A stretch of 64,000 bases of DNA, from assembly GCF_023055435.1 (NCBI RefSeq), contig NW_025963902.1:2539815-2603814 (forward strand), in the 5' to 3' direction. Source of the DNA: Haliotis rufescens (taxonomy: Eukaryota). The notes beneath the pieces were generated by a model. It did no database searches, was not told the DNA's origin, and worked only from the letters and a program-made list of their open reading frames with translations. A program made the position numbers and the translations under genes. Positions 38,988 through 59,700 of this stretch are shown one piece after another (within the stretch, counting starts at the first letter, position 1; the number at the start of each line of letters is the position of its first letter).

Positions 38988-39132
38988 TTATAGTCGGCAA
39001 CTTTGGAGCCAGGTTTCCAGGTTCGAGATCTGTTTCTCCACACTCGACTTGGCGGTTCCACCATAGGCTGTGTACTGGTCCACCGAGTTCTCATAGTTCC
39101 ACACATTGGCCACATCACTTTCGAACAGAGGG
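38988..39132 (-). CDS. ASL: ASL terminal coding exon: (S)[47 protein letters not shown]
   Basis: It matches the argininosuccinate lyase C-terminus (human [38 protein letters not shown]…). The acceptor 'ccggcag|c' is at 39132/39133. The exon starts with 1 nt that completes the AG from the previous exon. The stop is at 38988-38990. Confidence 0.85.
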
Positions 39133-40265
39133 CTGCCGGTACAAACGTAGTGAATGAGTGACATGGGGTTTAAACTGCTTTTACAGTGATAAATAATGTC
39201 AAATCGTAATGTGGGAGGTGGCCTAAAGGTGCAGATGTTTACTATCTCAATAAAACCTAATATTATGGATGTGTTGCTGACAAGGACCATAATTAAGGTG
39301 AATGTTGACTTCAAACCCATGATCAGCAGATCCTGATACAGGCAAGGGATGCAACTCATCTATAGGCCACCATGCACACACAGGTTTTAGGATAGTCACT
39401 AGAGCTGAGTATCGCTTGGTATCTTGCGTAACGATTTGTATCACGATACAGACTGACAATAGTACAGGTATCACGATACACCACATCAAATAGTAAGAAA
39501 TGATGAAATCACTGAAATTCAGCTCTAGAACCTCTTTCTTCATGCATTCATTTATTATCATCTCAAACACTTTAACAATGAACACCGAAAAAAAGAAGGT
39601 TTTCATCGAAGGGATGGTTATTAAATGTAGCAGTCAGTCGAAGTGTCCTCAGTCACCATGTCCTCGTGTGCTGCCATGGTTACAGCATGGTTATGCTACT
39701 ACTGACATTATGGGAGGTCAGTCACTCTGTTAGTTCCTGTTCTATTTATAGCATATCACGTTCAAGAATCGTGTGCATCATAGTAACGATGATATCGTAG
39801 GTATCAGTGAATCGTTACAGCCCTACAGTCTGGAAGGTAATTTAAGGTACCAACGTTTACTACAATATCTGAAAAACTATCGGACCTACTCCAGTCAAAG
39901 TTGGTATGAGATTATTAAACAGTCAAACATAACTGGATATTACATTTAAAGACAATCGGTGCATGAATAAAAAATCTGTCTATTTAGCTATCACTATATT
40001 TCCTCAACAACCAGACCTGTTCGTCATGGGTGGAATGAGCATTCATTGAAACAGCCATCTGCATAATGCTACCCTTCGTCACAGGGCAATATGACACAGT
40101 TGACCCAATCAACTCAACTCGAAAGGGTGCAAGGGAATCACGCACGCACGAATATGATGTAAGCGTTGGGCGTCTCAACGTGCGTGATTCCCGTGCATAT
40201 AGACATGCACATCAACATGCTGGCCGCGACCCTCGGGGACGGCTCACTTCACTTTATTGCTGTAC

Positions 40266-40372
40266 CTGACAGTCTTGAGGTCTTCCAAGAGGAGCTTCTC
40301 CATGACGCAGCCCTTCCTCTCCGCCAGCGCCACACAGCCGCCAGCCAATGAGTGGGCCTCACGGAACGGAAC
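40266..40372 (-). CDS. ASL: ASL exon: VPFREAHSLAGGCVALAERKGCVMEKLLLEDLKTV(S)
   Basis: Human: [36 protein letters not shown]. Acceptor 'ctgtgcag|gttccg', donor 'actgtcag|gtacag'. The exon is 107 nt with phase 0 in and phase 2 out. Confidence 0.85.
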
Positions 40373-40504
40373 CTGCACAGGCAAACACAGGATCTCACCC
40401 CAGTGTCGAAAAACTATTTCATTGTCATTTCCCTGAACAAGCTTTGTGATTGCAATACTTCACTGTTTTTCAAAAGTTATCCAGTATATCTCAATTAAGT
40501 TTTA

Positions 40505-41700
40505 AATCTTGTACCGTCTAGTCCCGTTTATCCGACATGGTTGGCTGCATATGATTATGTTGGATTAACGACTATGAAATTAGGTAGAATCAATGTTTGT
40601 GATGGAAAATCGGACAACTACATGATAGATAATGTTGTAATAAAAAAAAGGAAAAAAGAAATATTCAAATTGTTGTGTTACATTGTCAGCAGAATGTGTT
40701 TTTCTAATCATGTAACCTCTAAAGTTCAACACAAAACAACTGTTACGGGCTGTTTGACTGATTCAAAATACTTTTAAAAGCATAGTCTAGAATGGAAGTC
40801 TCCAGTTTGAAACTAGTGCCCCAATGCTTAACAACCTCATTAAAATCAAATCTTAGTTCTCGCTTCCGCTAAACAAAGATCTGAGGACATCCCATTACGG
40901 GTCACGTCAGACTGACCTTGCGCGAACTTTGACCGGCCAATGGATTGACCAATCAGAAGGGTGCTTTCTCGGGCTTTACAGCACTAATTTCAAATTGGCG
41001 ACTACGCTTCGAAACATATTTTGACAAATTCTCGATTACAAATTTTAAACCTGAACAAAAGAACATTCTGGAATGGCTAACAGATGGTCTAGACTGTATG
41101 GATTCTGTCGTTTAACCCGTAACTATCGTTCAGAATACCCCGTGTTAAAGTTTTCGAGGTTGCATGATTAGAAATCACATTCCGACTGTCACTTTCATAA
41201 TCTGGTAAGCAAAGCTCTGATTGGTCGGATGAAAGGTCGTTCTGACGTGACCCCTAATCGGATGTCTTCAGATCTTTGTTTAGCGGTAGCGAGTACTAAG
41301 GTCTGATTTTAATGAGATTGCAATGCTTAAGAAAGCTGCTTTCTTAGTGGCTAATGTCAAGGTCATTATGATGTGACCTGTAATAGGATATCCTCAGCGG
41401 TAGCGATAACTTGTATCTGATTTTAATGAGATTAAGCATGTGATTAAACCTGTTTTGTTTATTTAAATCATTAATTGTTAATTGTATCAAAACACCGGCT
41501 GTATACTCGCGGGCAGATGACCACGGAGAATGCTGATCAGTGTGTCGGATTAATGAGACTGATTAATGAGTGATTTCAGCAATTCGTTGAAAATTAGGCG
41601 TGTCGGAGTGCGAGACTGTCGGATTAACGGGTCTAAATAGCACTGATTTAATCGGTTCCCATCATTAGTGTCAGACAAAGCCGATTGTCGAATTAACAAG
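40505..41700 (+). repeat. Dispersed ~1.2-kb repeat also present at 61415-61935. The copy here carries a MITE-A insertion at 40847-41440.
   Basis: 40505-40840 aligns with 61415-61680 ('ccgacatggttggctgca.att.atgttggatt.ac…ggacaactacatgatagataa…tttctaatcatg.aacctctaaag.t.aacacaaaac'). 41440-41700 aligns with 61700-61935 ('cctgttttgtttatttaaa.catt…gtgtcggagt…gggtctaaatagcactga…ggttccc.tcattagtgtc…aaagccgattgt.g.attaac.ag'). Confidence 0.6.
40847..41440. mobile_element. MITE-A (copy 1). The ~85-bp TIRs read 'cattaaaatcagatct.agttctcgct.ccgctaaacaaagatctgaggacatcccattacgggtcacgtcagaacgacctttc'. An extra partial third TIR lies at 41340-41440.
   Basis: The left arm at 40847-40930 is the reverse complement of the right arm at 41235-41318. 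A second copy lies at 54472-55041. Confidence 0.75.
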
Positions 41701-41824
41701 ACTTGACTGTAGATGGTTCATGTATATGACATAGAGGGATAATGGAGGCAATATTACAACCCTATTGTAATCGGCACGGAAATCAGTGTCTCACAAGCGC
41801 ACAAAGACATGGCCACTACTCTGC

Positions 41825-42065
41825 TTGAGTGAGTGAGGGAGGGAGCGACTGATATTTTATGCCGCTTTTAGCAATATTCCAGCAGCATCACGGCTGCTGA
41901 CACCTGAGATGGGCATCACACATTGTACCCATGTAGGGAATCAAACCCGAGCCTGTGTGTGACGAGTGAACCCTTTAACCACTGTACCCATGTAGGGAAT
42001 CAAACCCGAGCCTGTGTGTGACGAGTGAACCCTATAACCACTAGGCTACCCAACCATCCCTACCC
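41825..42065 (-). mobile_element. SINE family 1 copy with a tandem duplication of the tRNA-like segment 'cattgtacccatgtagggaatcaaacccgagcctgtgtgtgacgagtgaaccct.taaccact'.
   Basis: Two ~63-bp copies lie at 41928-41990 and 41991-42048. Confidence 0.65.
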
Positions 42066-42220
42066 TGCTAGAACAGTAACTACTGAAAAACAAAATTTGT
42101 ATTCTCCCTCAATGAACCACTGATGAGAAAGCTAGCTGGATCTAACTGATGACATACGTTCTGAACTACCACAGCTCTGGGCGATTTTATGGCTGAAAAT
42201 CTAAAACATGGACACCTTAC

Positions 42221-42301
42221 CCCTTTCCTGACGAGGTAGTAGGCCACATCAGTTGCCAGCATGTCAGAGCTGAGCGCTGCGCTCATGGAATCAGGGTAGA
42301 T
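42221..42301 (-). CDS. ASL: ASL exon: [27 protein letters not shown]
   Basis: Human: [27 protein letters not shown]. Acceptor 'tgtttcag|atc', donor 'aaaggg|gtaagg'. 81 nt. Confidence 0.9.
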
Positions 42302-42987
42302 CTGAAACATATCAATCGTGGATTCTGCACCGTTTTAGTAATATTCCTGCAACATCATGAGGACGCTAGAAATGAACCCACGTGAGAAATCGAACCCAGG
42401 CCTTCAGCAAGATGGGTGAACGCTTTAACCACGCGGCCACCTCACTGCTTCAAAATAACAATAAAGCTGAAGATAAATATACTCACCGCCAAAACAGACG
42501 CGAACCATAGAAACATATAGAGAGATATGTACGTTAAGAAGAGATGTTTCAAATGTGTACCACTTAATGACAAAACTTACAATCAGTCAAGTGTTACCAC
42601 AGAGTGTCTTTATTCTTATCACGATATGCCGCATGTGAATTCCAAATTTCACAAGCTAATCCTGCACGAGACAAATGGTGCATCTGGATTCATGGATCTA
42701 TGACGTTACATGTGATGCGTTCGTCAGCGTCGGTTCACACAACATACCAGGATGTTCGTTTGTGCATTCAACCAATCTTATATCTCTTGAATATGAGTAA
42801 TTCTTCATATTAACCAACGTGTATTAAGCCGTCATGCCGTGATATAACTGGAATACTGTTAAAAGCGGCGTTAAACCCAACTCACTCACTCACTCACAAT
42901 AACACAGGGGCCAGCAAACTTTTGGCAAACTGTGTGTGTGTGATAAACATATGCTCTGTTTATGTTTCAATGCAAACAGTAACAAAC

Positions 42988-43071
42988 CTTGAGGGTAGAG
43001 AGGACACCCGTCGCCACCTGTAGAATGCCAGCCAGGGTGTCATAGGTGTCAAACATGGCCTCCTTGTCTTC
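42988..43071 (-). CDS. ASL: ASL exon: [28 protein letters not shown]
   Basis: Human: [28 protein letters not shown]. Acceptor 'ctttacttag|gaagac', donor 'ctcaag|gtttgt'. 84 nt. Confidence 0.9.
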
Positions 43072-43317
43072 CTAAGTAAAGCAATCGGGCAACTCGTTAG
43101 TCAGTGATCTCATCACCAGGGTGGAGTCAACCACACCCCAACAATCACGAGAATTACTCATCCACATGTACTGTACATAGACAATATCATATTCGTGTTC
43201 ATGTCATACTTTGTTCACGACATCAGTGTCTAAATCCCGTTATTTCCTGAGTGAGAGCGTAAACATAGACATGAACATAAATATGATGTTCTATTTTTTA
43301 ACGAAGAAGACGTCTAC

Positions 43318-43567
43318 ATTGAAAGACAAATGTTAGTGTTTACCTAAAAGGACAGCAAGTCACAACAGCAGCAGAACCACAATTTGTCGAAGGACGTCTT
43401 CAGCTATGATGTTGTGTCTCGCGTTACGTCATTCCAACCTCACTTCAAAATAAGATTTGAATGACGTCCACAATGCCATCCGTATGACGGAAAAATACAC
43501 TGTTGTCTCGTGACGTGATCATACCCTACGAGCACATATGATTTTATGAACCCTGATATGTTTGCCC
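43318..43567. mobile_element. MITE-B, a ~250-bp element with terminal inverted 'ttacctaaaagg…cctcttaggtaa'. It contains 'cttcagctatgatgttgtgtctcgcgttacgtcat' and two TGACGTCA-like motifs.
   Basis: Other copies lie at 61095-61340 and 16310-16480 (partial). Confidence 0.6.
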
Positions 43568-43589
43568 TCTTAGGTAATAAAAATAATTA

Positions 43590-43735
43590 CTCTTGACAAA
43601 GTCAAATTGGGAAAACAAGGACCTGACCCCTGAGGAGGTCTGACCAGACCGAGGCTGAGGTCCGGTCAGACCGCTGAAGGGGTTGGGTCAGAGGGTCCTC
43701 GTTTTCGCATATTGACCTTGTCAAGAGTAATCAAT
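43590..43735. mobile_element. Small palindromic MITE-D, immediately 3' of MITE-B. Its TIRs read 'attactcttgacaaagtcaa…ttgaccttgtcaagagtaat'. The core 'aggacctgacccctgaggaggtctgacc…ggtcagaccgctgaaggggttgggtcagagggtcct' can pair with itself.
   Basis: The reverse complement of 43713-43732 equals 43593-43612 with one mismatch. Confidence 0.55.
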
Positions 43736-44229
43736 CGTTATGTTGTACTGAAATTCACTTGAAAGTTTATGAAGCCTTAAAACCCTGCTCTGTTTCATTA
43801 CTGTAACTTAGCTGCGAACCGTAAAACGTTAGTATGCTAGATGCCATCTTGTTTTCTAGCAGACGAGTCAATATCCATCACATGACAGGTCAATACTGAT
43901 CATGTGACGAGTCAATCTTCGAGGTCAGTGTCAGTCACATGATTTGGGGGTCTACATTGAAATGTATTGTTTCGTTACGTGGTACAGATTAACGAATGGA
44001 ATTTCAAGATTCTTTTTTAATAGAGGTATAACAAGAATCATTGTCTGTAAACATTTAAATTTCTGAGAAGAGTGACTTTTCTCTAACATTGTTATTTCCC
44101 CAGTATCCATAGCTACATAATGGCGGCTACTGATCTTGCTGACTTTCACATCGTAATATTTACTTTGATATGTAGAAAATACCAGCGATTTTGGTCAAAC
44201 ACTTCAGCTCCAGATATATCACGATACAT

Positions 44230-45500
44230 ATGACCTGTAAATCTTAATGTCTTGTAGAGGTCAAGTAAATGTCCTGTATGTAACCTGTAAATGTCCTGTA
44301 TATGATCTGTAAATGTCCTGTATATAACCTGTAAATGTCCTGTATATGACCTGTAAATGTCACATAAATGTTCTTAAATTACCTGTAAATGTCCTGTATA
44401 TAACTGTAAATGTCCTGTATATGACCTGTAAATGTCCTGTATATAACCTGTACATGTCCTGTAGATGACCTGTAAATGTCCTGTATATAACCTGTAAATG
44501 TCCTGTATATAACCTGTAAATGTCCTGTATATAACCTGTAAATGTCCTGTATATGACCTGTAAATGACCTGTAAATGACCTGTAAATGTCCTGTAAATCT
44601 TAATGTCTTGTAGAGGTCACGTAAATGACCTGTAAATGTCCTGTATATAACCTGTACATGTCCTGTATAGGACCTGTAAATGTCCTGTATATAACCTGTA
44701 AATGTCCTGTAAATGACCTGTAAATGTCCTGTATATAACCTGTAAATGTCCTGTATATAACCTGTAAATGTCCTGTATATAACCTGTAAATGTCCTGTAT
44801 ATGACCTGTTAATGTCCTGTAAATCTTAATGTCTTGTAGAGGTCACGTAAATGTCCTTACATGACCTGTACGTGTCCTGTATATGACCTGTAAATGTCCT
44901 GTATATAACCTGTAAATGTCCTGTACATGTTCTGTATATAACCTGTAAATGTCCTGTATATGACCTGTAAATGTCCTGTATATGACCTGTAAATGTCCTG
45001 TATATAACCTGTAAATGTCCTGTATATGACCTGTAAATGTCCTGTAAATGACCTGTATATGACCTGTAAATGTCCTGTATATAACCTGTAAATGTCCTGT
45101 ACGTGTCCTGTATATAACCTGTAAATGTCCTGTATATAACCTGTAAATGTCCTGTAAATGACCTGTATATAACCTGTAAATGTCCTGCATATAACCTGTA
45201 AATGTCCTGTATATAACCTGTAAATGTCCTGTATATGACCTGTAAATGTCCTGTATATAACCTGTAAATGTCCTGTAAATGACCTGTATATAACCTGTAA
45301 ATGTCCTGCATATAACCTGTAAATGTCCTGTATATAACCTGTGAATGTCCTGTAAATGACCTGTATATAACCTGTAAATGTCCTGTAAATGTCCTGTATA
45401 TAACCTGTAAATGTCCTGCATATAACCTGTAAATGTCCTGTATATAACCTGTAAATGTCCTGTAAATGACCTGTAAATGTCCTGCACATGTCCTGTAAAT
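44230..45500. repeat. Minisatellite with a 22-bp unit made of two 11-bp halves, 'cctgtaaatgt' and 'cctgtatataa', and about 58 copies. It lies in the ASL intron and abuts the donor of exon 45516-45575.
   Basis: Direct count. The three minus-strand ORFs at 44826-45626 are artefacts, except their first ~20 codons, which are the real ASL exon. Confidence 0.9.
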
Positions 45501-45515
45501 GTAGATGTAAATTAC

Positions 45516-45575
45516 CTGCAGGTCCTTGTTATAGGTGCTGGGAATCCCCTTCAGGGACATCATGAACCCCGAACA
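45516..45575 (-). CDS. ASL: ASL exon: [20 protein letters not shown]
   Basis: Human: [20 protein letters not shown]. Acceptor 'catgttgcag|tgttcg', donor 'ctgcag|gtaatt'. 60 nt, phase 0 at both ends. Confidence 0.9.
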
Positions 45576-46039
45576 CTGCAACATGACGTACAATACATCT
45601 GTCATGGGACTAAGGGAGTAATACAATCATCCCGAACACTGCAACATCACGTACAATACATCTGTCATGGGACTCATCACACAAGTAAGGGATTTAACCC
45701 CATGCTGCTTTCTAATTACCCTTTATTGATTCTATTAGGACTCGTTGTTCAAGTGCTACACTGGCAGAACAAGGGAGTAATTCAACCATCCCTATTTATC
45801 ACAGTTTAATTTGACTCATTTAAAAAACCAATCACTTCAAAAACGACTTTTCCTAAAGTAACCCATAAATTGAAGTAGTCATGAGAGTGATGAGTGCATG
45901 TTGTTTATGCTACAGTCAGCAATATTCCAGCTATATCATGGTGGCCTGTAATAGTTGAGTCTAGGCCAGGCAGACCAGTGACTGCAAGCAGACTTCTGGG
46001 GACTTACAGTACTCCATAATCACTGCAGGCACAATGACA

Positions 46040-48190
<2,151 letters not shown>

Positions 48191-48204
48191 TCAGTAACTC
48201 AGTC

Positions 48205-48232
48205 ACATCATCATCATCATCATCATCATCAT
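48205..48232. repeat. (ATC)9 trinucleotide microsatellite.
   Basis: 'atcatcatcatcatcatcatcatcatc' is visible directly. Confidence 0.9.
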
Positions 48233-48281
48233 ACTGACAGAGTGATTGTAGCCCACAAGGCCTTATTAACACTTAAAGTAC

Positions 48282-48906
48282 ATCCACACCATAGTGGAGT
48301 GAGTGAGTATGGTTTTACGCATCTTCTTGAGGCAAGAGAGTTAACTGACTATGGAAAGTTTCCACCCTTGCCAAACTAGGCTGGAACTCCTGGGCTCAAT
48401 CGTAGCGCCACCAGTGGCTATTATGAGTTAAGTCCCTTCTAAGCCTCTCTTATGGACCAATCAGATTCCACCTCTCGTATCACTTGTATTTGCTTCAAAC
48501 AAAATGATGGCGCCCAGTCAGGACGATCTGATTGATTGGGAATATTTTGGAAAATTACTGTTGACAATAACTTTGCGGTGCGCATGCTTTACAAATCCTC
48601 CAATTGACCAAAATCTGCATGACAGTTCACGAACCGGATTTCAATTTCGATTTCGTTGGGTGATTTTGATTGGACTATGCATAGACTCGTTAGTCAAGCC
48701 AAAATGTAACTCCATAATACCAGCCTAGTTCGGCAAGGGTGGAAACTGGACTTTTATAGTCAGTCGACCCTCTTGCCGCCGCTTTAAACAATATTCCAGC
48801 AATATCACAGCGGGGAAAATGGGATTCACACAGTGTACACATGTGGGGATTCGAACCTGGGTCTTCGGTGTAACGAGCCAACGCGTTAACCACTAGGCTA
48901 CCCCAC
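48282..48906 (-). mobile_element. SINE family 1 copy flanked by a 14-bp target-site duplication 'cacaccatagtgga'. It is split by a nested MITE-C insertion.
   Basis: The TSD lies at 48276-48289 and 48906-48919. The SINE segments are 48290-48318 and 48786-48905. Confidence 0.65.
48320..48785. mobile_element. MITE-C, a ~465-bp element with ~55-bp TIRs 'ggcaagagagttaactgactatggaaagtttccacccttgccaaactaggctgg'. It is nested inside the SINE.
   Basis: The left arm at 48326-48380 is the reverse complement of the right arm at 48723-48783. Another left-end copy lies at 60140-60265, and the internal part is copied at 18690-18900. Confidence 0.6.
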
Positions 48907-48994
48907 CGCCCCACACCATAGTGGAACTGTTCTCACAGTGGTTCATGGTTGATAACATATGTGTTACCTTCAGGATGCATAGAGATAGATTCTG

Positions 48995-50250
48995 CTGGCA
49001 ATGTAGTCTGTATGCGTCCGAGAGCGTGACAAAGCTCCACTATTGCTACAACTCTGATCAATACTGACATGTATGTCTCCGAGAGCGTGACAAAGCTCCA
49101 CTATTGCTACAACTCTGATCCATACTGACCTGTATGCGTCCGAGAGCTTGACAAAGCTCCACTACTGCTACAACTCTGATCAATACTGACATGTATGTCT
49201 CCGAGAGCGTGACAAAGCTCCACTATTGCTACAACTCTGATCAATACTGACATGTATGTCTCCGAGAGCGTGACAAAGCTCCACTATTGCTACAACTCTG
49301 ATCAATACTGACATGTATGTCTCCGAGAGCGTGACAAAGCTCCACTATTGCTACAACTCTGATCCATACTGACCTGTATGCGTCCGAGAGCTTGACAAAG
49401 CTCCACTACTGCTACAACTCTGATCAATACTGACATGTATGTCTCCGAGAGCGTGACAAAGCTCCACTATTGCTACAACTCTGATCCATACTGACCTGTA
49501 TGCGTCCGAGAGCTTGACAAAGCTCCACTACTGCTACAACACTGATCAATACTGACATGTATGTCTCCGAGAGCGTGACAAAGCTCCACTATTGCTACAA
49601 CTCTGATCCATACTGACCTGTATGCGTCCGAGAGCTTGACAAAGCTCCACTACTGCTACAACTCTGATCAATACTGACATGTATGTCTCCGAGAGCGTGA
49701 CAAAGCTCCACTATTGCTACAACTCTGATCCATACTGACCTGTATGCGTCTGAGAGCGTGACAAAGCTCCACTACTGCTACAACACTGATCCATACTGAC
49801 CTGTATGCGTCCGAGAGCGTGACAAAGCTCCACTATTGCTACAACACTGATCCATACTGACCTGTATGCGTCCGAGAGCGTGACAAAGCTCCACTATTGC
49901 TACAACTCTGATCCATACTGACCTGTATGCGTCCGAGAGCTTGACAAAGCTCCACTATTGCTACAACACTGATCCATACTGACCTGTATGCGTCCGAGAG
50001 CGTGACAAAGCTCCACTATTGCTACAACACTGATCCATACTGACCTGTATGCGTCCGAGAGCGTGACAAAGCTCCACTATTGCTACAACTCTGATCCATA
50101 CTGACCTGTATGCGTCCGAGAGCGTGACAAAGCTCCACTCCGGCTACAACACTGATCCATACTGACCTGTATGCGTCCGAGAGCGTGACAAAGCTCCACT
50201 ATTGCTACAACTCTGATCCATACTGACCTGTATGCGTCCGACAGCGTCAC
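48995..50250. repeat. Satellite with a 61-bp unit 'tgtatgcgtccgagagcgtgacaaagctccactattgctacaactctgatccatactgacc' and about 20 copies. The first part alternates two unit types (a 122-bp dimer); the later part is homogeneous. Each unit is a copy of the last ~27 nt of ASL exon 50228-50342 plus the first ~34 nt of the following intron, including the GT donor.
   Basis: Period 61 was measured from 49011, 49072 and 49133. On the minus strand each unit reads '…agctttgtcacgctctcggacgcatacag|gtcagtatggatcag…'. The exon end reads '…agctttgtgacgctgtcggacgcatacag|gtcagtatgg'. Confidence 0.95.
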
Positions 50251-50342
50251 AAAGCTGAACTCCTTGGTGGAGTAGAGGATGAGGTCCTCCGCCCAGCGGC
50301 TGAGGTGAGTGCTGAGCAGCGACGCCCAGAACAGAAACTCCA
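50228..50342 (-). CDS. ASL: ASL exon: (V)[37 protein letters not shown](S)
   Basis: Human: [39 protein letters not shown] (the fumarate-lyase signature region). Acceptor 'tgtttcag|tggag', donor 'gcatacag|gtcagtatgg'. 115 nt. Confidence 0.9.
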
Positions 50343-50937
50343 CTGAAACATGGCGGAACAGGAGGCAAACTCAGCAACGGATACAGAGACGCCCCAGCTT
50401 GAGGCAATTAGGAATATCTGGGATAATTGGGTCCTAAATTAGCAATAGTTAATAAAATATTCATGATTGTTCAACTACTTAAAGCCACGAACCCGTGAAG
50501 ATCCGGGATAGAATAGGTCTTCAGCAACCCATGCTTGCCGTAAAAGGCGACTAAGGTGATCAGGCAGTCAGGCTCGCTGACTTGGTTGATGCATGTCATG
50601 GATCCCAATTGCGTAGATCGATGCTCATGATATCAATCACTGGATTGTCTGGTCCAGACTTGATTATTTACAGACCACTGTCATACAGCTAAAATATTTG
50701 AGTGCAGCAAACCAACCACACCAACTTTTAAATCATGAAGTTAACGCATTACAAAGTAAAGATGAGCAACAGCCCCTAGCCTAAAATGAGTCCCGAAATT
50801 ATTGCGAGTAGCCCTATCTTTGAAATTTAAAAAACGACAACACTATTTGTTTGTTTGTTGTTTAATGCTGCCCTCAGCAAAATTACAGCTATTTGACGAC
50901 GGTCTGTAAGTAATCAAGTCTGGACCAGACAACTCAC

Positions 50938-51000
50938 CGACAAAGTCTCGGTCACTGACTGCATCCAAACTGTTTCCTGTCACATCCCCAAGGCCAAGTT
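50938..51000 (-). CDS. ASL: ASL exon: (E)LGLGDVTGNSLDAVSDRDFV
   Basis: Human: [22 protein letters not shown]. Acceptor 'tggtttcag|aacttgg', donor 'tttgtcg|gtgagt'. 63 nt. Confidence 0.9.
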
Positions 51001-51181
51001 CTGAAACCAAAGATCGATTCCATTAACACCACATTCTATATATTCATGCTGAGTTTAATAAAATATGTATTTAGTCTTTTTGTTTGGAACATGGCTAAAC
51101 ATTATTTTTTCACTTCTGCTTCCAGTCAACAAGAAATAAAATGTGTAAAGAATTGACTTCAATACTTTTCGCTTTAATGGA

Positions 51182-51320
51182 GTGATCAAGGTTTTACACC
51201 GCTTTAAGCAACATTCCAGCAATATCACGGTGGGGAACACCAGAAAGGGGCTTCACACATTGTACACATGTCGGGAATCAAACCCGGGTCTTTGGTGTGA
51301 CGAGTGAATGCTTTAACATC
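51182..51320 (-). mobile_element. SINE family 1 copy.
   Basis: 'ccgctttaagcaacattccagcaatatcacggtggggaacaccagaaaggggcttcacacattgtacacatgtcgggaatcaaacccgggtctttggtgtgacgagtgaatgctttaacatctaggctaccccaccgccc' is visible directly. Confidence 0.7.
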
Positions 51321-51434
51321 TAGGCTACCCCACCGCCCATCGATTTCATGGATGCCAAAAAATCACTTGAAATTTATACATTCTTGCCTAAACACCTTTG
51401 AAACATGACACAGAAATAAGAACACTCGTTTTAC

Positions 51435-51487
51435 CTTTAGCAAGGAAGTCTCTGTCAACATCAAACGGATTCCCAGCCAGCGCACCA
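51435..51487 (-). CDS. ASL: ASL exon: (S)GALAGNPFDVDRDFLAK
   Basis: Human: SGAIAGNPLGVDRELLRA. Acceptor 'cttgtttag|tggtgcg', donor 'gctaaag|gtaaaa'. 53 nt. Confidence 0.85.
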
Positions 51488-52087
51488 CTAAACAAGAATA
51501 ACAAGAGAGTGAGACTAGCTTAACACCGCTTTGAACAGTATTTCAGTAATATCACGGCATGACAAAACGGAAATAAGATGTTTACCACCTTGTTGAAATG
51601 CAGCTACACAGGAATGGTGTTGACAAACTTAAAAACGCGATCAGTGTGAATCTGTAAATCAACCCCGCGATCACTGATTTCTCTCATACATAAGGGACAC
51701 AACTCTGTACAGCAAGTTGTTGGGCCTTTGACAACTGGGCCACCTGTGACCTTGAAAAGATTGATATCTCAATACCAGGTAATTATGCGTTAAAAAGACA
51801 AAATTTGAGAGAACAATTTCTAAACTACAAATACACATGTACATTTGTAAAGTGCCTATTTCCCACAATGCATACTCGTAGGCAGGCAATTACTACCCCA
51901 GTCAACAGGTCGCTGGACCTTCAATCTACATTCCAAGGGCCACTGAAAATCAGCACCTGGACAATTATGAATATTTTTAAAATTTTAATATTTTAATCAA
52001 CTGTTTTTATGACATGATTTACTGCTTTTTCAAATGCAAGCCATAAGCATGTGATAACACCTAACATGAATTAGTATATAATAAGGG

Positions 52088-52918
52088 TGAAACGATACAG
52101 CAGTTATATCGCGGCGTGTCAGCTTAATATGGGAGGAAAGCCCGAAGTGATGCAGGCCCCAGAAGTTTACCACTTCGGTGAAACCCACGAGCACAGGTAT
52201 GGTGCCGGCAAACCTAGAAACCTTATCGAGTCGAACCGGGATTCGAACCCATGATCATAGGTTTCTGGCATGCCCAAGGGACACAACTCTGCACAGCAAA
52301 TCGCGGTGCCTTACACGACTGGGCCACCCGTGCCCCCGTTTTTAATATTGAACTTGAAAGGCTAATTACAACACATTTTGCAATATCTGACTGACAACAC
52401 CATTCGGATTTAGGTGTGGGTGGGTGTGTGAATGGGTGTGTGTGTGTGGGTGTGGTTGGGGGTGGGTGTGTGGGTGTGGGTGTGTGGGTGGGGATAGAAA
52501 AGTGTGGTTGTGGATTGGGGCTGGGTTGAAGGTGTGGATGAGTGTGGGGGTAGAGGTGTGGTTCTGGATAGGGGTGGAAGTGGGGGTGTGGATCGGGGTG
52601 GGAGTGGATGGAGGTGTGGGTGGATTGGGGCGGGGTTGAGGGTGTGGATGGGCGTGGGGGTAGAGGTGTGGTTCTGGATAGGGGTGGAAGTGGGGGTGTG
52701 GATCGGGGTGGGGGTGGGTGGAGGTGTTGGTGGGGGTGTGGGTTGGGGTAAAGGTGTTGTTGTGGATGGGGGCAGGGGTGGGGGTCATTAAACAAGTAGT
52801 AAGTAACTTATTTTAGCAAGTATATCAACTTGTATTGATACAGAAAGAAAAATGAATTGTGTATCGCATAGTCACATGAAAACTCACGATGCACCGATGT
52901 ATCAGTTCACCCCTGGTA
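52088..52918 (+). mobile_element. Composite TIR-bearing element of ~830 bp. It has a head 'gggtgaaacgatacagcag', a reverse-oriented tRNA-like module at 52200-52330 ('…gggattcgaacccatgatcataggtttctggcatgcccaagggacacaactctgcacagcaaatcgcggtgccttacacgactgggccacccgtgccc'), a spacer, a (GGGTGTG)n-like G-rich microsatellite at 52395-52790, and a tail 'ccgatgtatcagttcacccc' that is the inverse of the head.
   Basis: The head and tail are 17/20-bp inverted repeats. A shorter copy lies at 37372-37738. Partial tRNA-like modules of the same family lie at 51640-51760 and 53290-53470. ORFs 52223-52795, 52366-52788 and 52424-52791 are low-complexity artefacts. Confidence 0.55.
52395..52790. repeat. G-rich low-complexity microsatellite, (GGGTGTG)n-like, about 400 bp. 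It is C-rich on the ASL sense strand.
   Basis: 'gggtgtgggtgtggttggggg…' is visible directly. Confidence 0.85.
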
Positions 52919-53144
52919 TATAAAATCCCATGATGGTCATAAGAAGTGACAAACAGGATCGGTGGTCAGTGTGTCAATCACTGGATTGTCTGGTCGTGAC
53001 TTGATTATTTACAGACCGATATAATAAAGTTGGAATATTGCAGAGTGCAGCATTAAACAACAAACGCACAAATGATACAAACATATCATCTCCTATTTCA
53101 AACTGCATGCTCTCTTCAGGGGAGACAACTCTGCCAGTACTGAC

Positions 53145-53222
53145 CTGCCAAGGGGCAAAACTGCTGTTCTCTCCCTCAGCTGGTCAAGTCTCTTCAGATC
53201 TCGCTGCAACATCCACCCATAG
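53145..53222 (-). CDS. ASL: ASL exon: (S)YGWMLQRDLKRLDQLRERTAVLPLG(S)
   Basis: Human: [27 protein letters not shown]. Acceptor 'cctgttgtgttcag|ctatggg', donor 'cttggcag|gtcagtactgg'. 78 nt. Confidence 0.85.
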
Positions 53223-54258
53223 CTGAACACAACAGGGACGAAGAAGTGGTCATATAAGTTTAGAGGCTGACTTCTAAGAGAGTTGGATGAGATGACACTT
53301 TGAGGAATATTTCACATTATCGAAGGAAAGCCTGATGTGATATAAGTCTTGGACATTCATCACCTTGTGAAAACCACGAGAAAGAATATGGTGCTGACAA
53401 ACCTTGAAACATAAGCAGAGCGAACCAACGACGATAATTTTCTGGCACCCTAAGGGATGCAACTCTGCCCTATGAACTTGGGTGCTTCAGGTAATAAAGG
53501 GCTCTCGTGCCCTACCCTGATGCTAGAAATAAGGGCTGGGACGAGTCCACATTTACTACCCGGGTACCCACCCCGCTATTACCCGACCCTACCTGGTACC
53601 TGCTGTAGGCCTCAAGAGCTTGGAACATAATGTGTCACTGGGAATTATCTTACATAAGCCCTGGCAAAAACTGAACTTGACTGAAGCTTTATCTTTATTC
53701 AAAAACATAAAAGTCAGAAGGAATGTGTGCATAGTCAGAAAAAATGGGGACATCAGAGTTTTGTAGTGTAACCATGGAGTTACAGTGAGTTTTTGTCATT
53801 AAACAATATATCATGTGACTAACATGAGTCCGAGTTGCAGCTGAGTTACCTGTCCAGCACCTAGCTAAAACAGAACATAATCACAACTTCTACTCATAAA
53901 ATTCTATCAAATGAACGACAGTTTGGAAGGGATTTGCCATCTCCATGACAACAATCATGTACCCATTTGGCATACCAGTACATAAACTAAATGACAAAGT
54001 ATCATTTGATACTTTGACCATGTTTATGTTAATCGAACTGCATAAAAAATATTCCAAAGGGCTTACATATCAGAAACAACATATTTTCAATTTATGCACC
54101 TTTATCGCAAATTACTTAATTTTATAATAACTGTGATAAATGATCAATAAAACTGTTCTCTTTCCCACTGCTATATTCTAACTCAAGCTTATTCTATTAA
54201 ATATTATTTCTTTAGAAACTATTTTTCCAGCCACCGACTCAAACTCACAAAGACTCAC

Positions 54259-54336
54259 CTCAGCAACCAGTGGCTCCATCTGATTGGCTGTGCTCTCTGT
54301 AGGTGTGTGTAACCAGGTAGTAAGATGTCAATTTCT
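54259..54336 (-). CDS. ASL: ASL exon: (S)[25 protein letters not shown](S)
   Basis: Human: (E)[25 protein letters not shown]. Acceptor 'atatttttcag|agaaattgac', donor 'gctgag|gtgagtc'. 78 nt. Confidence 0.85.
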
Positions 54337-54471
54337 CTGAAAAATATTTCAATCAAATTATTGGCAAAGTTCAAAGAAAAAAACATTTGAAGAAAAAGGA
54401 AAGCTGGTATCATTTATTGTGTTTGTGTCAATACAGAAAGCTATCACCACTAACTTCACGGTTGATTTGCA

Positions 54472-55041
54472 ATCTCATTAAAATCAGATCTGAGTTCTCG
54501 CTGCTGCTAAACAAAGATCTAAGGACATCCCATTACGGGTCAAGTCAGAACGACCTTTCGCGAACTTTGACCCATCACTTAAATGACCAACAAGAAGTCT
54601 ACATCAGCCAGTTAGAAAGCACCTTTCTCGAGCTTTATGGCACTCGTTTCAACCTGGTGGCTTCCATTTCAGATTACGCTTGAAAAATATGTTCACACAG
54701 TTCTTGATTAAAATTTTGAAAACTGAACAAACGAACATTCCGGAATGTCTAATATATGGTTGAGATTGTATAGCAATGCTTCCCACATACTGTTCAACAC
54801 CTCCTTCTTTCAAATGTTTATCCCACTGAAGCAAGAGATAGACGATAATTTTGACGAATCAGTCGTACGGGTCGTAACTGTCGTTCAGAATACCCCGTGT
54901 TGACGTTTTCAAGGTTGCATGATTAGAAAACACTTTTCCGCTCTGATTGGTCGGATGAAAGGTCGTTCTGACGTGCCCCGTAATGGGATGTCCTCAGATC
55001 TTTGTTCAGCGATAGCGAGAACTAGGATCTGATTTTAATTG
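54472..55041. mobile_element. MITE-A (copy 2, 570 bp). It has the same ~85-bp TIRs as 40847-41318 and lies in an ASL intron.
   Basis: The left TIR 'cattaaaatcagatctgagttctcgctgctgctaaacaaagatctaaggacatcccattacgggtcaagtcagaacgacctttc' faces the right TIR 'gaaaggtcgttctgacgtgccccgtaatgggatgtcctcagatctttgttcagcgatagcgagaactaggatctgattttaat'. Confidence 0.75.
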
Positions 55042-55431
55042 GGACTGGGTTGATTTGCTGTGTAGTCAAATCAAGACACAGCCTGATTCAAGCAAAAAGG
55101 AAGCCAGCGTATGCTCAGATTAAATCACAAGAACAACCATATGTCTCAGTGAACATGTGCCATAGCTTTACAGTCTCATCTCCTTAATACACTGTTTCTG
55201 TACCAGGCAATGGTAGGGTTCTCAAAAGATATGCCCAGAGCATGACTCATTTGATTTCAGTGATCATTTAGTGTACTAAAAATAGACACACATTAAGTGA
55301 CATTATTGTTTGGCTTGTTTGTTCTGGTTGCTGGAAAACACTACACTCAATAAACAATTGGCAAGTAAATAATCATATCTGGAACTGACAATTCAGTGAA
55401 TTGATATTGTGACTGTAGCGGCCATAAAATT

Positions 55432-55620
55432 TCTGAGTCCCGTGATGGGATTCGAACCACGGTCCTGATGATCAGAGGTCGGACACCTTGTCCATGTGAC
55501 CAAAGAGGTTAACCCCGTCAGCAAGCTGACAAGGTAAGGATGTCATCTGTGGGATGACTCCACGCCCTGCTACATGAGCAACTATGTCATCGGGGTCTGA
55601 AGACACACAATAAACCATGT
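55432..55620 (-). mobile_element. tRNA-derived SINE family 4. The reverse complement contains '…ggaccgtggttcgaatcccatcacgggact'. A second copy lies at 57222-57372.
   Basis: The two copies share 'tttc.gagtcccgt.atgggattcgaac.acgg.cct..tgatc…gatgtcatctgtggga…gccct.cta.a..aac'. Confidence 0.55.
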
Positions 55621-55750
55621 CAGCAAGCTTGACCACTCGATCCATGATCACCTCTTACGACCATCATAGGTTGGTGGGGGCCAATCCAACCTGGATTCCC
55701 CAAATGGGCGACTCGCATTGAGCTGACATTCTCTTCATCAGTGTACTCAC

Positions 55751-55905
55751 GACTTAGCCCTGTTGAGGATGACGCTGATGAAGTCGGTGAGGTAAGTGCG
55801 GAGCTGCAGCTGGGCATCTCTCATCCACAGCCTCATGTCCGTGGCCACCTGGTCATTGCGGCTCCGGCCCGTGTGCAGCTTGCCTCCTGCTGCACCGATC
55901 AACTC
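55751..55905 (-). CDS. ASL: ASL exon: [51 protein letters not shown](S)
   Basis: Human: [53 protein letters not shown]. Acceptor 'gaatgtttcag|gagttgatcgg', donor 'gctaagtc|gtgagtac'. 155 nt. Confidence 0.9.
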
Positions 55906-56470
55906 CTGAAACATTCACACCATCGTCACCTGCACTGATGCAGCTCTTAATTTAGTCATCCTGCTGCATGATCAACTCCTGAAACATTCACACCATCGTC
56001 ACCTGCACTGATGCAGCTCTTAATTTAGTCATCCTGCTGCATGATCAACTCCTGAAACATTCACACCATCGTCACCTGCACTGACGCTTCTCTTAATTTA
56101 GTCATCCTGCTGCATGATCAACTCCTGAAACATTCACACCGGCGTCACCTGCACTGATGCAGCTCTTAATTTAGTCATCCTGCTGCACCGATCAACTCCT
56201 GAAACATTCACACCATCATCCCCTGCACTGACGCTTCTCTTAATTTAGTCATCCTGCTGCATGATCAACTCCTGAAACATTCACACCATCGTCACCTGCA
56301 CTGACGCTTCTCTTAATTTAGTCATCCTGCGGAATGATCAACTCCTGAAACATTCACACAAGCATGTCTATCGTCACCTGCACTGACATGTTTCTTAATT
56401 TAGCTATCTTGTTGCACCGATAAACTCCTGAAGCATTGACAAAACAATGTCCATCGTCTCCTGCACTGAC
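55890..56470. repeat. Tandem array with a ~72-bp unit and about 8 copies. On the minus strand each unit reads 'gagttgatcatgcagcaggatgactaaattaagagctgcatcagtgcaggtgacgatggtgtgaatgtttcag'. That is the intron 3' end (pyrimidine tract plus the AG acceptor) followed by the first ~22 nt of ASL exon 55751-55905.
   Basis: The period was measured from 55891 to 55963 and then recurs. The exon start 'gagttgatcggtgcagcagga' matches the unit start 'gagttgatcatgcagcagga' with 3 mismatches. Confidence 0.9.
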
Positions 56471-56577
56471 GTTTTTCTTAACTTAGACCTTATCCTAATC
56501 CTGATCAACATAGTAAAAAAACATGAACATGTTCTGTTCCAAAAGTTTTTTGTCCCTGAATAACTCTAAATAACAAC

Positions 56578-56661
56578 CTTGAGCCTCCTCTCATTGGCAG
56601 TGTGGATGTCTTCGTCCCCTGGCTTCAACTCAAACTCATCTTTCTGCCACTCCTCCTTAAC
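56578..56661 (-). CDS. ASL: ASL exon: [28 protein letters not shown]
   Basis: Human: [28 protein letters not shown]. Acceptor 'gtgtttgcag|gttaagg', donor 'ctcaag|gttgtta'. 84 nt. Confidence 0.9.
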
Positions 56662-57092
56662 CTGCAAACACATCATAAATTCCTGCGTCAGTGATTAACA
56701 ATGTTCTAGCAACATCAGAGGGCCAAGACAAAAGTGAGTTATCTGCCCATGAATGGAGGTCCTATTTCACACTCAAAACTGGTAGTACATTCTACACTGA
56801 TACCAACCAAAGACCGTCTTTCTCGATGATTTGTCTGAATCTCCATAAATGTCAGACTGCAGTTTACTAGCATTCAAAATGACACTTCAAGCCATATCTC
56901 GCTGTAAATTGTGAACCAGACCATATTTTCTAAAGACTTCTAAATTGCATCCTCAAATGTAAGAACATATGAACTTTACAATTATTAGTAATTTTAAACT
57001 GTTTCCCAGTTTGCCCATCATGGGTGCTTAGCTTAAGATCCTAGATAAATCTCTGAGACACACACCAGAGACCCTTCAGGTTGTAAACGTCA

Positions 57093-57179
57093 CCTTCTCC
57101 AAGCCACCAAGTATGGAGTCCCTCTCGGCTGCCGTCACAATGCCCACCTTCTCCAGTGCCTTCACATACGCCTGACTTC
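57093..57179 (-). CDS. ASL: ASL exon: GSQAYVKALEKVGIVTAAERDSILGGLEK
   Basis: Human: [29 protein letters not shown]. Acceptor 'cattgttccag|ggaagtc', donor 'gagaag|gtgacg'. 87 nt. Confidence 0.9.
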
Positions 57180-57221
57180 CCTGGAACAATGTCAGCAGAT
57201 GGAAAGACCCAAATCACAGTT

Positions 57222-57372
57222 TCGAGTCCCGTTATGGGATTCGAACGACGGACCTTCTGATCCAAGGTTGGTCAACATGAACAAAGAAGTTAATACTGTA
57301 GGCCAGCTGACATGGTAGAGATGTCATCTGTGGGACTTATGATCGTATGATCATGCCCTACTAGACAACATG
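57222..57372 (-). mobile_element. SINE family 4 copy, directly adjacent to a SINE family 2 copy at 57372-57560.
   Basis: See 55432-55620. Confidence 0.5.
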
Positions 57373-57560
57373 TTTGTTTGTTGATGGTTAACGCCGCACT
57401 CGGAAATATTCCAGCTATATGATGGCGATCTGTATAAAATCGAATCTGGACCAGACAATCCAGTGATTGAGCATTGATCCATGCAATTGGGACATGATGA
57501 CATGCATCAACCAAGTCAGCGAGCCTGACCACCTGATCCCGTTAGTCGCCTATTACGGCA
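57372..57560 (-). mobile_element. SINE family 2 copy in minus orientation.
   Basis: 'ttaacgccgcactcggaaatattccagctatatgatggcgatctgtataaaatcgaatctggaccagacaatccagtgattgagcattgatccatgcaattgggacatgatgacatgcatcaaccaagtcagcgagcctgaccacctgatcccgttagtcgcc' is visible directly. Confidence 0.7.
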
Positions 57561-58467
57561 AGCATGACACAACAGAGTAACATATCAAACTATACTCACC
57601 ACCACAAGAAACGCAAAAAAACATATACAGTAAACTACGGTTATAACAAACTCAAAGGGACCACTAATTTTAGTTCGTTATAACTGCAGGTTATAAGCAT
57701 ATACAGCATATCTACAGCAAATGGACGGGACCAAGAAACAGTTTGTTATATCCATCAGTTGGTTATAAGCGTGTTCGATATAAATGTAGTTTACTGTATC
57801 CTGGTTAATATATGAATTACTCATATTCAAGAGACATAAGATTGGTTTCAAGTACAAACGAACATACTGCTTTGTTGTGTGAACTGACGCTCATGAACGC
57901 ATCACATGTGACGTCATAGGCCCATGACTCCAGATGCTCCATTTGTCTCGTGCAGGATTAGCGTGTAAAGTTCGGAAATCACGTGCAACATATTATGAAA
58001 AGTATAAAGACACTCTGCGGTAACACTTGACTGCTTGTTAGTTTTGTCATAAATAGGTACACATTGGAAACATCTCTTCTTAACAAACATACTTCTCTAT
58101 ATGTTTTTATGTTTCGTGAGTATAGTTCTGATTGAAACATACTGTGACAAGTGTATTCAATATTTGTTGAACCAAGGAACCACTCTCGCATGTCTAGGTG
58201 CATGTGTAGTTTAACATGAAGATTTTTCCACTTACAGCAAATTTGAAGTGGTTGTTTCTTATAATTGGTTTTCCTTGGACACAAAATGTAAATAAAACTA
58301 TTTTATAAAAGCAACATTTTAAACAAACAGTTTCAGAAAAAGAATAATACCCTGGCAAAACCAAAATGACACTGACAATCGTGGAAATTTAGTTTCATAT
58401 AAATAAACATATTCAAGCTGCAGGCCTTGTTAATAAGTTTTAATCAGGAAATAACAGATTGAAGTAC

Positions 58468-58575
58468 CTCAATGTCAGCCTTCCACATCCTCTTGTCATA
58501 GGAGATGGAGGCGTTGAACTTCTCCATGATCGGGTCTGTTGCCCCGGTGAACCGGCCACCCCACAGCTTACTTCC
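58468..58575 (-). CDS. ASL: ASL exon (second coding exon): [36 protein letters not shown]
   Basis: Human: (S)[35 protein letters not shown]. Acceptor 'gatccactag|ggaagtaag'; the in-frame codon just upstream is TAG, so the initiator Met must lie in an upstream exon. Donor 'attgag|gtacttc'. 108 nt. Confidence 0.85.
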
Positions 58576-58654
58576 CTAGTGGATCAAACAATGAGAGGAT
58601 ATATACGAATGACCACATGAAACCACAATTATCCAGAGCATGTATCACCACTCT

Positions 58655-58935
58655 GATCAATACCCTAGAGACCTGTGAAGATCAGGGTAGAATAGGTCTT
58701 CAGCAACCCATGCTTGCCGTAAAAGGTGACTATGCTTGTCGTAAGAGGCAACTTAAGGGATCGAGTGGTCAGGATCGCTGACTTGGTTGATGCATGTCAT
58801 CGTATCCCGATTACGTGGAACGATGCTCATGGTGTCAATCACTGGATTGTCTGGTCCAGATTCGATTATTTACAGACTGCGGTCATATAGCTGGAATATT
58901 GCTGAGTGCGGTGTTAAACAACAACCCAACCAACC
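58655..58935 (+). mobile_element. SINE family 2 copy.
   Basis: 'gaagatcagggtagaataggtcttcagcaacccatgcttgccgtaaaaggtgactatgcttgtcgtaagaggcaac…caatcactggattgtctggtccagattcgattatttacagactgcggtcatatagctggaatattgctgagtgcggtgttaaacaacaacccaaccaacc' is visible directly. Confidence 0.7.
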
Positions 58936-59230
58936 AATAGCCTTGACCCATACACCAACATAGCTTCATTTTGGAACTGACGTAAACAGCTCCATCGCCA
59001 CTGCCGTGTGAGGTCTGTCGTTGTCTTGTTGGAAAATGACTTTCGCTTGTTGCTTAATGGGAAGGACGTGTGGCTGAAGAATCTCATCCAATTACCCAGA
59101 AACTGTACTAGGTCTGTTCTACCAGTGTAGGAGATGGCAGCCCACATCATCACAGTGTCGCCACTTAATCTGTCCACTTCCTGAATGCAGTTTGTGCATA
59201 ATGTTCCCTGCGGTGCCAATAAACACGTCT
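58930..59230 (-). pseudogene. Fragment of a Tc1/mariner transposase C-terminal catalytic region (…GDTVMMWAAISYTGRTDLVQFLGNWMRFF…). It is truncated by the SINE family 2 insertion.
   Basis: It resembles the Tc1 motif GGGSVMVWG.FS..G.G.L..I.G.M. The ORF 58914-59219 runs into the SINE tail. Confidence 0.4.
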
Positions 59231-59564
59231 ACCGTCACGGCGAAGCTGTAGGATTGCGATGGCAAGCAAATGAAACCCCAACGTTTGTATATCCCAACAA
59301 GCGATGTTGCACGTGCATGTCATGTTGGTGTGGTTCGGCGCCAGGCTCTGACTTGCTTGTGTTTTGTGATTTTTCTATCTTTTCATCAAATTTCTGAAGT
59401 AGCCCAATCTTTCCACACAAATCATCCCCAATCCATGCAGAAATGTCCAATTTATTTTTGGTATCCAGTTTTTATGGACACGCTCTGTAAGATATTTACG
59501 ATTTAACTATTTGTGTGGTTTCGTTTTGCAGAGTATAATATGCTTCAAATAAAATTATGTGTAC

Positions 59565-59700
59565 AACCTATTGCTGTCTACCTCCTATTGCAGTCTACCA
59601 TCTACTACTGTCTACCACCTACCGCAGTCTACCACCTTCTGCAGTCTATGACCTATTTGCAGTCTACCATCTATTGCAGTCTACAACCTCATGCAGCCTA
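59565..59700. repeat. Tandem repeat with a 14-bp unit 'tattgcagtctacc' and about 9 diverged copies.
   Basis: 'gcagtctac' recurs every 13-15 bp. Confidence 0.7.

Follow-up and report, generated by a model that had tools for sequence, protein, structure and literature searches.

The subject of this study is a 61-bp tandem repeat at an exon-intron junction of the argininosuccinate lyase gene (ASL) of the red abalone, Haliotis rufescens. The DNA analyzed, referred to here as the window, is a stretch of 64,000 nucleotides from contig NW_025963902.1 (RefSeq assembly GCF_023055435.1, positions 2,539,815 to 2,603,814 of the forward strand). An exon model of ASL was assembled on the minus strand, from 60575 to 38988, using tblastn guides and splice motifs. 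The 471-aa translation of this 16-exon model is identical to the protein annotated as 'argininosuccinate lyase-like [Haliotis rufescens]' (P0121), and the translation of exons 10 and 11 leads into the signature region of the enzyme. The intron that follows exon 10 is 2057 nt long, and 1220 nt of it belong to the 61-bp array, which we call J2. Three further arrays (J1, J3, and J4) lie at other junctions of the same gene. Coordinates are collected in Table 1. Scans for tRNAs and Rfam families over 38-61 kb of the window gave no match.

Tandem Repeats Finder, run on the window, reported a single array at J2, with a period of 61, 20.5 copies, 93% matches, and zero indels. Read on the minus strand in a 61-nt register, the first unit (unit 0) is AGCTTTGTGACGCTGTCGGACGCATACAG/GTCAGTATGGATCAGAGTTGTAGCAATAGTGG, where the slash marks the genuine exon-intron boundary. 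It is composed of the last 29 nt of exon 10, which ends at 50228, and intron positions +1 to +32. Unit 0 is followed by 19 further full units, giving 20 in all, and then by a partial unit of 29 nt. The intronic 32-mer had 19 matches with up to three mismatches, all of them inside the array, when none was expected from shuffled sequences; outside the array it was not found anywhere in the 64-kb window. A 27-nt pattern of the unit was also scanned in JGI metagenome contigs, with no match. These results bear out the original prediction, made from the sequence of this stretch, that a 61-bp satellite of about 20 copies is a tandem amplification of the 3' end of an ASL exon and its 5' splice site. 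The span given for it, 48995-50342, took in the whole of exon 10 (50342..50228); the array proper is shorter (49008..50256). The match of the exon part, put at 24/27 by eye, had to be replaced by 27/29 after re-alignment of the exon 10 end with the standard unit. Both differences are synonymous, the exon having GTG and CTG and the units GTC and CTC.

The units fall into three types: the standard type A; type B (n=7), which reads GGAGACATACAT/GTCAGTATTG; and type C (n=5), which carries GTCAAGC. Units 1-8 are close to uniform. Units 9-14 form three 122-bp B-C dimers, and the units that follow are B, B, B, C, and B. In the dimer zone each unit has an identity of 0.97-1.00 to the unit two back, versus 0.89-0.90 to the adjacent unit. 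The 122-bp dimer organization proposed earlier for the proximal part of the array is thus real, but it is limited to these six units (49707..49342). A similar adjustment applies to the statement that every repeat holds the codons for VTLSDAY and a CAG/GTCAGT donor: it does not stand for the seven B units, in which the junction is CAT/GT, or for the five C units with GTCAAGC.

The donor 9-mer CAGGTCAGT occurs 13 times in register within J2, once as the real donor CAG/GTCAGT and 12 times as an identical pseudo-donor. A weakened form, CATGTCAGT (CAT/GTCAGT), occurs seven times, and the last partial unit has no GT. There are accordingly 19 pseudo-donors, 12 identical to the real site and seven weakened, which is nearly the number of up to 20 cryptic donors first suggested. 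Computed from the sequence, splicing from any of the 19 would run into a premature stop codon, because 61 is not divisible by 3 and the unit has a TAG in one of its frames. Predicted RNA structure was rejected as the cause of the choice of the real donor: the predicted unpaired probability of its 9-mer (0.42) lies inside the range for the pseudo-donors (0.21-0.61). A 66-aa protein query spanning the exon junction found no Haliotis fragments among its matches, and a look-up of P0121 for transcripts gave no record.

Three other ASL junctions carry arrays of the same kind. At the exon 11 donor, J3 contains 32 pseudo-donors, AAT/GTATGT, identical to the real donor, and all of them lead to a premature stop. 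J4 follows exon 12; its units, CAGGTCATTTA and CAGGACATTTA, are seeded on CAG/GTAATTTA, and one of its roughly 10 pseudo-donors, located 45 nt downstream, would preserve the reading frame. J1 is on the acceptor side of intron 4. Six pseudo-acceptors, TTTCAG/GAGTTGATC, precede the real acceptor, which is the last copy, and there are two older degenerate units in addition. Every J1 pseudo-acceptor was computed to give a premature stop, and a motif search for exon 5 first matched one of the J1 pseudo-copies. J1 is flanked on both sides by CAGGA, as the edges GATCAGGA/TTAGG in the intron and GCAGCAGGA/GGCAAG in the exon show; to judge from the sequence, this is the signature of a duplication between short direct repeats.

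Table 1. Positions of the genes, exons, and repeats discussed in the text. Positions are those of the window unless the contig L005 is named; a slash marks an exon-intron boundary.
Feature	Position	Strand	Description
ASL (argininosuccinate lyase) gene, Haliotis rufescens	38988..60575	minus	16 coding exons, introns all GT-AG, intact 471-aa open reading frame
ASL coding exon 10	50228..50342	minus	115 nt; ...EFLFWASLL...FVTLSDAY, end TAC AG/; authentic donor GT at 50227-50226
ASL coding exon 11	48086..48170	minus	...LFGN; acceptor exon of J2-bearing intron; from exon model; ASL signature region
J2, 61-bp minisatellite, 20.5 units	49008..50256	minus	unit = 29 nt exon end + 32 nt intron start
J2 higher-order part, units 9-14	49342..49707	minus	three 122-bp B-C dimers; B units carry CAT/GTCAGTATTG
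J1, acceptor array, 73-bp units	55885..56486	minus	last 52 nt of intron 4 + first 21 nt of exon 5 (start 55905)
J3, 32-bp x 64 array	46037..48088	minus	from exon 11 donor; unit = first ~31 nt of ancestral intron (GTATGTGGAAGAGT...) + up to 3 nt of exon
J4, 11/22-bp array, ~114 x 11 bp	44265..45518	minus	begins with last CAG of exon 12 (45575..45516)
H. rubra 46 bp x 2, 100% identity	L005 3066-3155		across exon 2 donor
H. rubra exact 28-mer GTTGTGTGAATGTTCCAGGAGTTGATCG x 2, 40 nt apart	L005 ~8376-8403, ~8416-8443		across exon 5 acceptor
H. rubra 33 bp x 2, 100% identity	L005 12970-13036		ends 4 nt before exon 9 acceptor; creates TTTGCAG pseudo-acceptor
KCTD-like gene (BTB_2 + KCTD_C)	27973-28518, 28490-29167	minus	H. 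cracherodii orthologue 9 kb downstream of ASL

The age of the arrays was examined by comparing the orthologous ASL loci of H. cracherodii (the black abalone), H. rubra (L005), and H. asinina. The related species differed on whether J2 is present. In H. cracherodii there is an array at the same junction, with 23.1 units of 61 bp and 96% matches; in H. rubra and H. asinina the orthologous intron is plain (623 and 571 nt, respectively, starting with GTTAGTG) and J2 is absent from it. The arrays J1, J3, and J4 have the same distribution, all being common to H. cracherodii and none occurring in H. rubra or H. asinina. At the J4 site the latter two species have only a proto-repeat (CAGGTAATGTA CAGGCCAG...), and the distal boundary of J3 is the same in H. 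cracherodii as in H. rufescens. Because J2 is shared by H. rufescens and H. cracherodii and missing from H. rubra and H. asinina, its birth is placed by these sequences between two splits: that of the red/black lineage from the lineages of H. rubra and H. asinina, and the later one between H. rufescens and H. cracherodii. The intron itself is older. An intron at the same position and in the same phase is found in H. rubra, in H. asinina, and in the teleost Coryphaenoides (L003), where the junctions are GACGCTTACAG/GTGCC...CAG/TACAGGG; because the teleost intron agrees in both respects, the intron is, by this comparison, ancient and was not gained with the array.

The direction of copying, from exon to array, is also clear, because the real exons of the three other species, H. 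cracherodii, H. rubra, and H. asinina, have the GTC and CTC codons that the units carry; the end of exon 10 in H. cracherodii is in fact identical to the array units. The J2 units, on this evidence, keep the ancestral synonymous state, and the red abalone exon changed afterwards. The two changes, both C>G, are at window positions 50248 and 50242, 6 nt apart; they are specific to H. rufescens and are the sole differences between exon and unit. Selection on them was considered and rejected, because 2 changes in 29 nt did not differ significantly from 38 in the 1416 nt of the whole coding sequence.

Within each species the copies of J2 resemble one another more than they resemble those of the other species: unit identity was 93.9% within red abalone and 95.7% within black abalone, versus 92.5% between them. 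Variants that have reached high frequency are private, types B and C occurring only in red abalone and G12A and T35A only in black abalone, with none common to both. The B-C higher-order repeat, these species-private variants, and the copy numbers of 20.5 versus 23.1 argue for continuing unequal exchange, as had been proposed from the dimers, and J2 is by this sequence evidence under concerted evolution. The other arrays differ more widely in size between H. rufescens and H. cracherodii, with 6.5 versus 14.5 copies for J1 (where H. cracherodii has about 14 pseudo-acceptors), 64 versus 31 for J3, and 114 versus 23.5 for J4. Because copy number differs so freely between these two species, it does not appear to be constrained.

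Several other features of the host intron were recorded. Adjoining the distal edge of J2 is a stretch of ~440 nt (48568-49007) that is present in H. rufescens and not in H. cracherodii. It includes a tRNA-like segment with the look of a short interspersed element, GGGGTAGCCTAGTGGTTAACGCG...GGTTCGAATCCCC, at ~48840-48903; ARAGORN and Rfam made no call on this segment. A perfect (CAT)9 / (ATG)9 microsatellite is found at 48206-48232, 36 nt upstream of the exon 11 acceptor. In the array-free intron after SDAY (L005, L006), the first ~300 nt hold several degenerate copies of a motif ..AGAATGATTCAGTNGTGGAGGTTTTT.. recognized by eye; a part of it, GTGGAGGTTTTTC, resembles the J2 unit junction GTGGAGCTTTGTC, again by eye. 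These degenerate copies may represent what is left of an earlier repeat, or may have supplied the microhomology from which the array started. A resemblance seen by eye between part of the J2 unit, TCAGAGTTGTAGCAATAG, and the ancestral intron of H. asinina ~270 nt from the donor was discarded, because blastn gave no supporting alignment.

Arrays of this class are already known, as the "mirages" of amphioxus and in the human genes F7, IFI6, CBS, LMNB2, and PDGF, and by their structure the abalone arrays belong with them. J2 is a head-to-tail array inside a gene, its unit falls within the 10-160 bp range of the class, and its first monomer holds the genuine exon-intron boundary; the silence of the pseudo-sites, also typical of the class, is suggested in abalone by the annotation. 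Amphioxus mirages occur at both 5' and 3' boundaries in the Adh3, troponin C, globin (BflGb6 and BflGb9), and PGBD5 genes, and splicing is not disturbed by them (PMC3087553, PMC3902484). Like the abalone arrays, they have units of 10 to ~160 bp, are found several to a gene, undergo concerted evolution from which the boundary units are left out, and are unstable in length; in amphioxus, normal splicing persists despite the repeated AG/GT signals (PMC3087553, PMC3902484). The differences are that the host is a mollusc rather than a cephalochordate, that the abalone arrays have 20, 64, and ~114 copies compared with 3-6 in the globin cases, and that the abalone arrays can be given a date of birth, between two splits inside a single genus. 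Somatic instability and evidence from reverse transcription PCR come from amphioxus, whereas the abalone arrays are known here from genome sequence and annotation. A search of the literature found no report of boundary-spanning arrays in molluscs.

The closest human parallel to J2 is the 37-bp variable number tandem repeat in intron 7 (IVS7) of F7 described by Borensztajn et al., which has 5-9 copies and a first monomer made of 4 nt of exon 7 and 33 nt of intron (PMC1557585). All of its identical donors are functional, and only the most upstream one is used (PMC1557585). As in J2, the first monomer spans the boundary, and behind the authentic donor come identical pseudo-donors in register (PMC1557585). 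J2 contains more of the exon (29 versus 4 nt) and more pseudo-donors (19, some of them mutated, versus 4-8). ASL also has an array on the acceptor side, where the 5'-to-3' scanning rule derived from F7 predicts the wrong site. Site choice was determined by experiment for F7 and is read from annotation for abalone. Boundary-spanning minisatellites with 10-25 repeated donors are also present in IFI6 (6-16) intron 2, CBS intron 13, LMNB2, and PDGF intron 4, and both IFI6 and CBS make constitutive use of their first two pseudo-sites (PMC1557585). The first two pseudo-sites of J2 differ from those of IFI6 and CBS in that they shift the frame (+61 and +122 nt), so that their use would be unproductive.

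Taken together, these results make it likely that J2 is a mirage-type minisatellite in an ancient ASL intron, founded at microhomology, grown by unequal exchange, carried along as part of the intron, and probably functionless. The founding event would have been a short tandem duplication between short direct repeats, with a unit straddling the exon-intron boundary; the edges of J1 suggest this most clearly. The array would then have enlarged and turned over by unequal exchange or replication slippage. The annotation and the F7 experiments suggest that the spliceosome picks the copy that is contiguous with the body of the real exon, which is the first donor in J2 and the last acceptor in J1. 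An ASL model of H. cracherodii built with the first J2 donor and the last J1 acceptor gave the annotated protein of that species (P0122). The remaining copies would be silent, or would yield transcripts with premature stops that are cleared by nonsense-mediated decay. The arrays would be passengers, neutral or mildly harmful, and would be tolerated because the splice site chosen is the one contiguous with the exon. J2 probably has no function of its own: copy number varies freely between the sister species and the pseudo-donors erode in both, which argues against one.

Several points weigh against this interpretation. The silence of the pseudo-sites is deduced from the annotated proteins and by analogy with human F7. 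Scanning from 5' to 3' fits the donor arrays but would select the wrong copy in the acceptor array J1; because such simple scanning mispicks the J1 acceptor, the selection rule, as read from these sequences, would have to be exon-contiguity or exon definition, and contiguity fits donor and acceptor arrays alike. The exon-distal edge of J2 lies 29 nt into the unit in H. rufescens and 8 nt into it in H. cracherodii, and the flanks beyond are non-homologous. Because this edge differs between the two species, the founding event of J2 is not reconstructable to the nucleotide level. Finally, that a single gene holds four arrays seeded on junctions hints at more than random duplication. The probability that at least 4 of the 7 arrays in ASL introns would span a junction was ~0.005 under uniform placement, in a test made post hoc. 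In this null model a founding duplication of the observed length could fall with equal chance anywhere on the ancestral intron, and the introns were given their H. asinina lengths.

This clustering is what would be expected if splice junctions were true hot spots of minisatellite birth, so that the positions of the arrays had a mechanistic cause and did not result from chance and tolerance. Possible causes are pausing of the polymerase or spliceosome at splice sites, leading to stalled replication and template switching, or the CAGG(T/A) motif, which resembles the cores of recombination-prone minisatellites; CAGG is present in every unit. The four largest arrays in the ASL introns of H. rufescens all overlap a junction. 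Moreover, H. rubra, which lacks the big arrays, has three two-copy duplications, independent and perfect or nearly so, that lie at other ASL junctions or beside them (Table 1); at the exon 5 acceptor, the second copy of the 28-mer holds the real acceptor and the start of exon 5 (L005 8434). Several amphioxus genes show the same pattern, and the mechanism of origin is described as unclear (PMC3087553). On the other side, the evidence comes from one gene in one genus, and the test was designed after the data had been seen. Ancestral intron 4 is short, so that a 73-bp duplication would span a junction 64% of the time by chance. The only other recognizable host gene in the window, a KCTD-like gene, has its array at the stop codon and not at a junction. 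That abalone splice junctions are preferred birthplaces of minisatellites, as suspected for amphioxus, with a transcription-, splicing-, or motif-linked process duplicating the boundaries repeatedly, is therefore a tentative proposal that we think has about one chance in four of being correct.

The surroundings of ASL are unusually rich in tandem repeats. The last ~9 codons and the stop of the KCTD-like gene are repeat sequence, because the gene ends inside unit one of a 52-bp x 10 array. The first 8 kb of the window (5-7934) are occupied by a 163-bp satellite of ~48 copies with a higher-order period of 326 bp (94% matches). More minisatellites lie downstream of ASL, at 19302-20922, 22875-25131, 26150-26584, 35877-36267, 36611-36881, and 8289-8643, with periods of 16-80 bp and up to ~95 copies. 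Between them are open reading frames that resemble Tc1/mariner (21853-22607) and reverse transcriptase (31641-34437), labels that were assigned from the translations only. The ASL protein of H. rubra is flagged LOW QUALITY in NCBI.

A second alternative is that the arrays are functional, with the repeated donors serving as landing pads or decoys for the U1 small nuclear ribonucleoprotein and thereby tuning ASL output, either through unproductive splicing and decay or by shielding the intron against premature cleavage and polyadenylation. With every J2 and J3 pseudo-donor a premature stop results, which is what regulated unproductive splicing would require, and donor arrays are present in three consecutive introns. 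Against these points, copy numbers are 2- to 5-fold apart between the sister species, and the pseudo-donor 9-mer is conserved no better than the rest of the J2 unit. The commonest private variants, G-1T in H. rufescens (7 units) and T+6A in H. cracherodii (7 units), weaken the donor, and H. rubra and H. asinina manage without arrays. We consider a function of this kind improbable.

Stepwise removal of the array by recursive splicing was also considered. The unit, ...CTTTGTCACGCTCTC...CAG/GTCAGT, can be viewed as a juxtaposed acceptor and donor, and splicing of the real donor to the CAG of a unit would regenerate CAG/GTCAGT, a junction identical to the original. The pyrimidine tract before the pseudo-CAG, however, is weak (~13/23 positions, read by eye), and we found no data supporting such splicing. 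Known recursive splice sites serve very long introns, and the host intron is only 2 kb. This explanation is very unlikely. We give hardly more than a trace of credence to an assembly artefact, or to a dispersed satellite or transposon-borne array that landed beside the exon. Assembling arrays is difficult, and an assembly can misstate their copy numbers; nevertheless, two independent assemblies from two species place the array at the same junction with species-specific variants. A dispersed element is opposed by the exon-derived half of the unit, which matches coding sequence conserved from fish to abalone, and by the intronic half, which is found nowhere else in the 64 kb.

The idea that the intron arose when an AGGT-containing piece of exon was duplicated in tandem (the Rogers/Rogozin model), with the array as the remnant of that event, was rejected as next to impossible: a distant relative (P0001; ENA contigs L001 and L002) does have SDAY and STGSS fused with the intron absent, but it is only ~58% identical overall and lacks a second conserved intron as well, which points to loss, and fish and the array-free H. 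rubra and H. asinina hold the intron at the identical position and phase. The contigs of this relative (ENA ERZ26222911, ~10019-10667) look like haplotypes and encode an ASL homologue without the introns SDAY/STGSS and NKDLQ/EDKE. The two are cases of precise intron loss, and they correspond to two of the three donor-array introns of abalone.

A minisatellite of this type, probably a passenger, gives the ASL gene of abalone some value beyond the locus itself. It adds a mollusc to amphioxus and the few human genes in which boundary-spanning minisatellites are known; its origin is datable, array-free sister species are at hand for comparison, and a gene that carries four arrays, including one at an acceptor, is more striking than a single case. 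ASL is in effect a natural experiment in splice-site selection, with 12 identical donors behind the real one, 32 in the next intron, and, before the real acceptor, near-identical acceptors that number 6 in H. rufescens and ~14 in H. cracherodii. Because the donor arrays need the first copy to be used and the acceptor array the last, the gene can separate 5'-to-3' scanning from a rule in which the exon-attached copy wins. If splice junctions are indeed hot spots, then large arrays of identical donors and acceptors, such as the 12-32 donors and 6-14 acceptors in this one essential gene, would be general in some marine invertebrate genomes. Gene predictors and short-read assembly can be misled by arrays like these. 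Their variable length could also make them useful as markers in abalone, animals that are both farmed and a concern for conservation.

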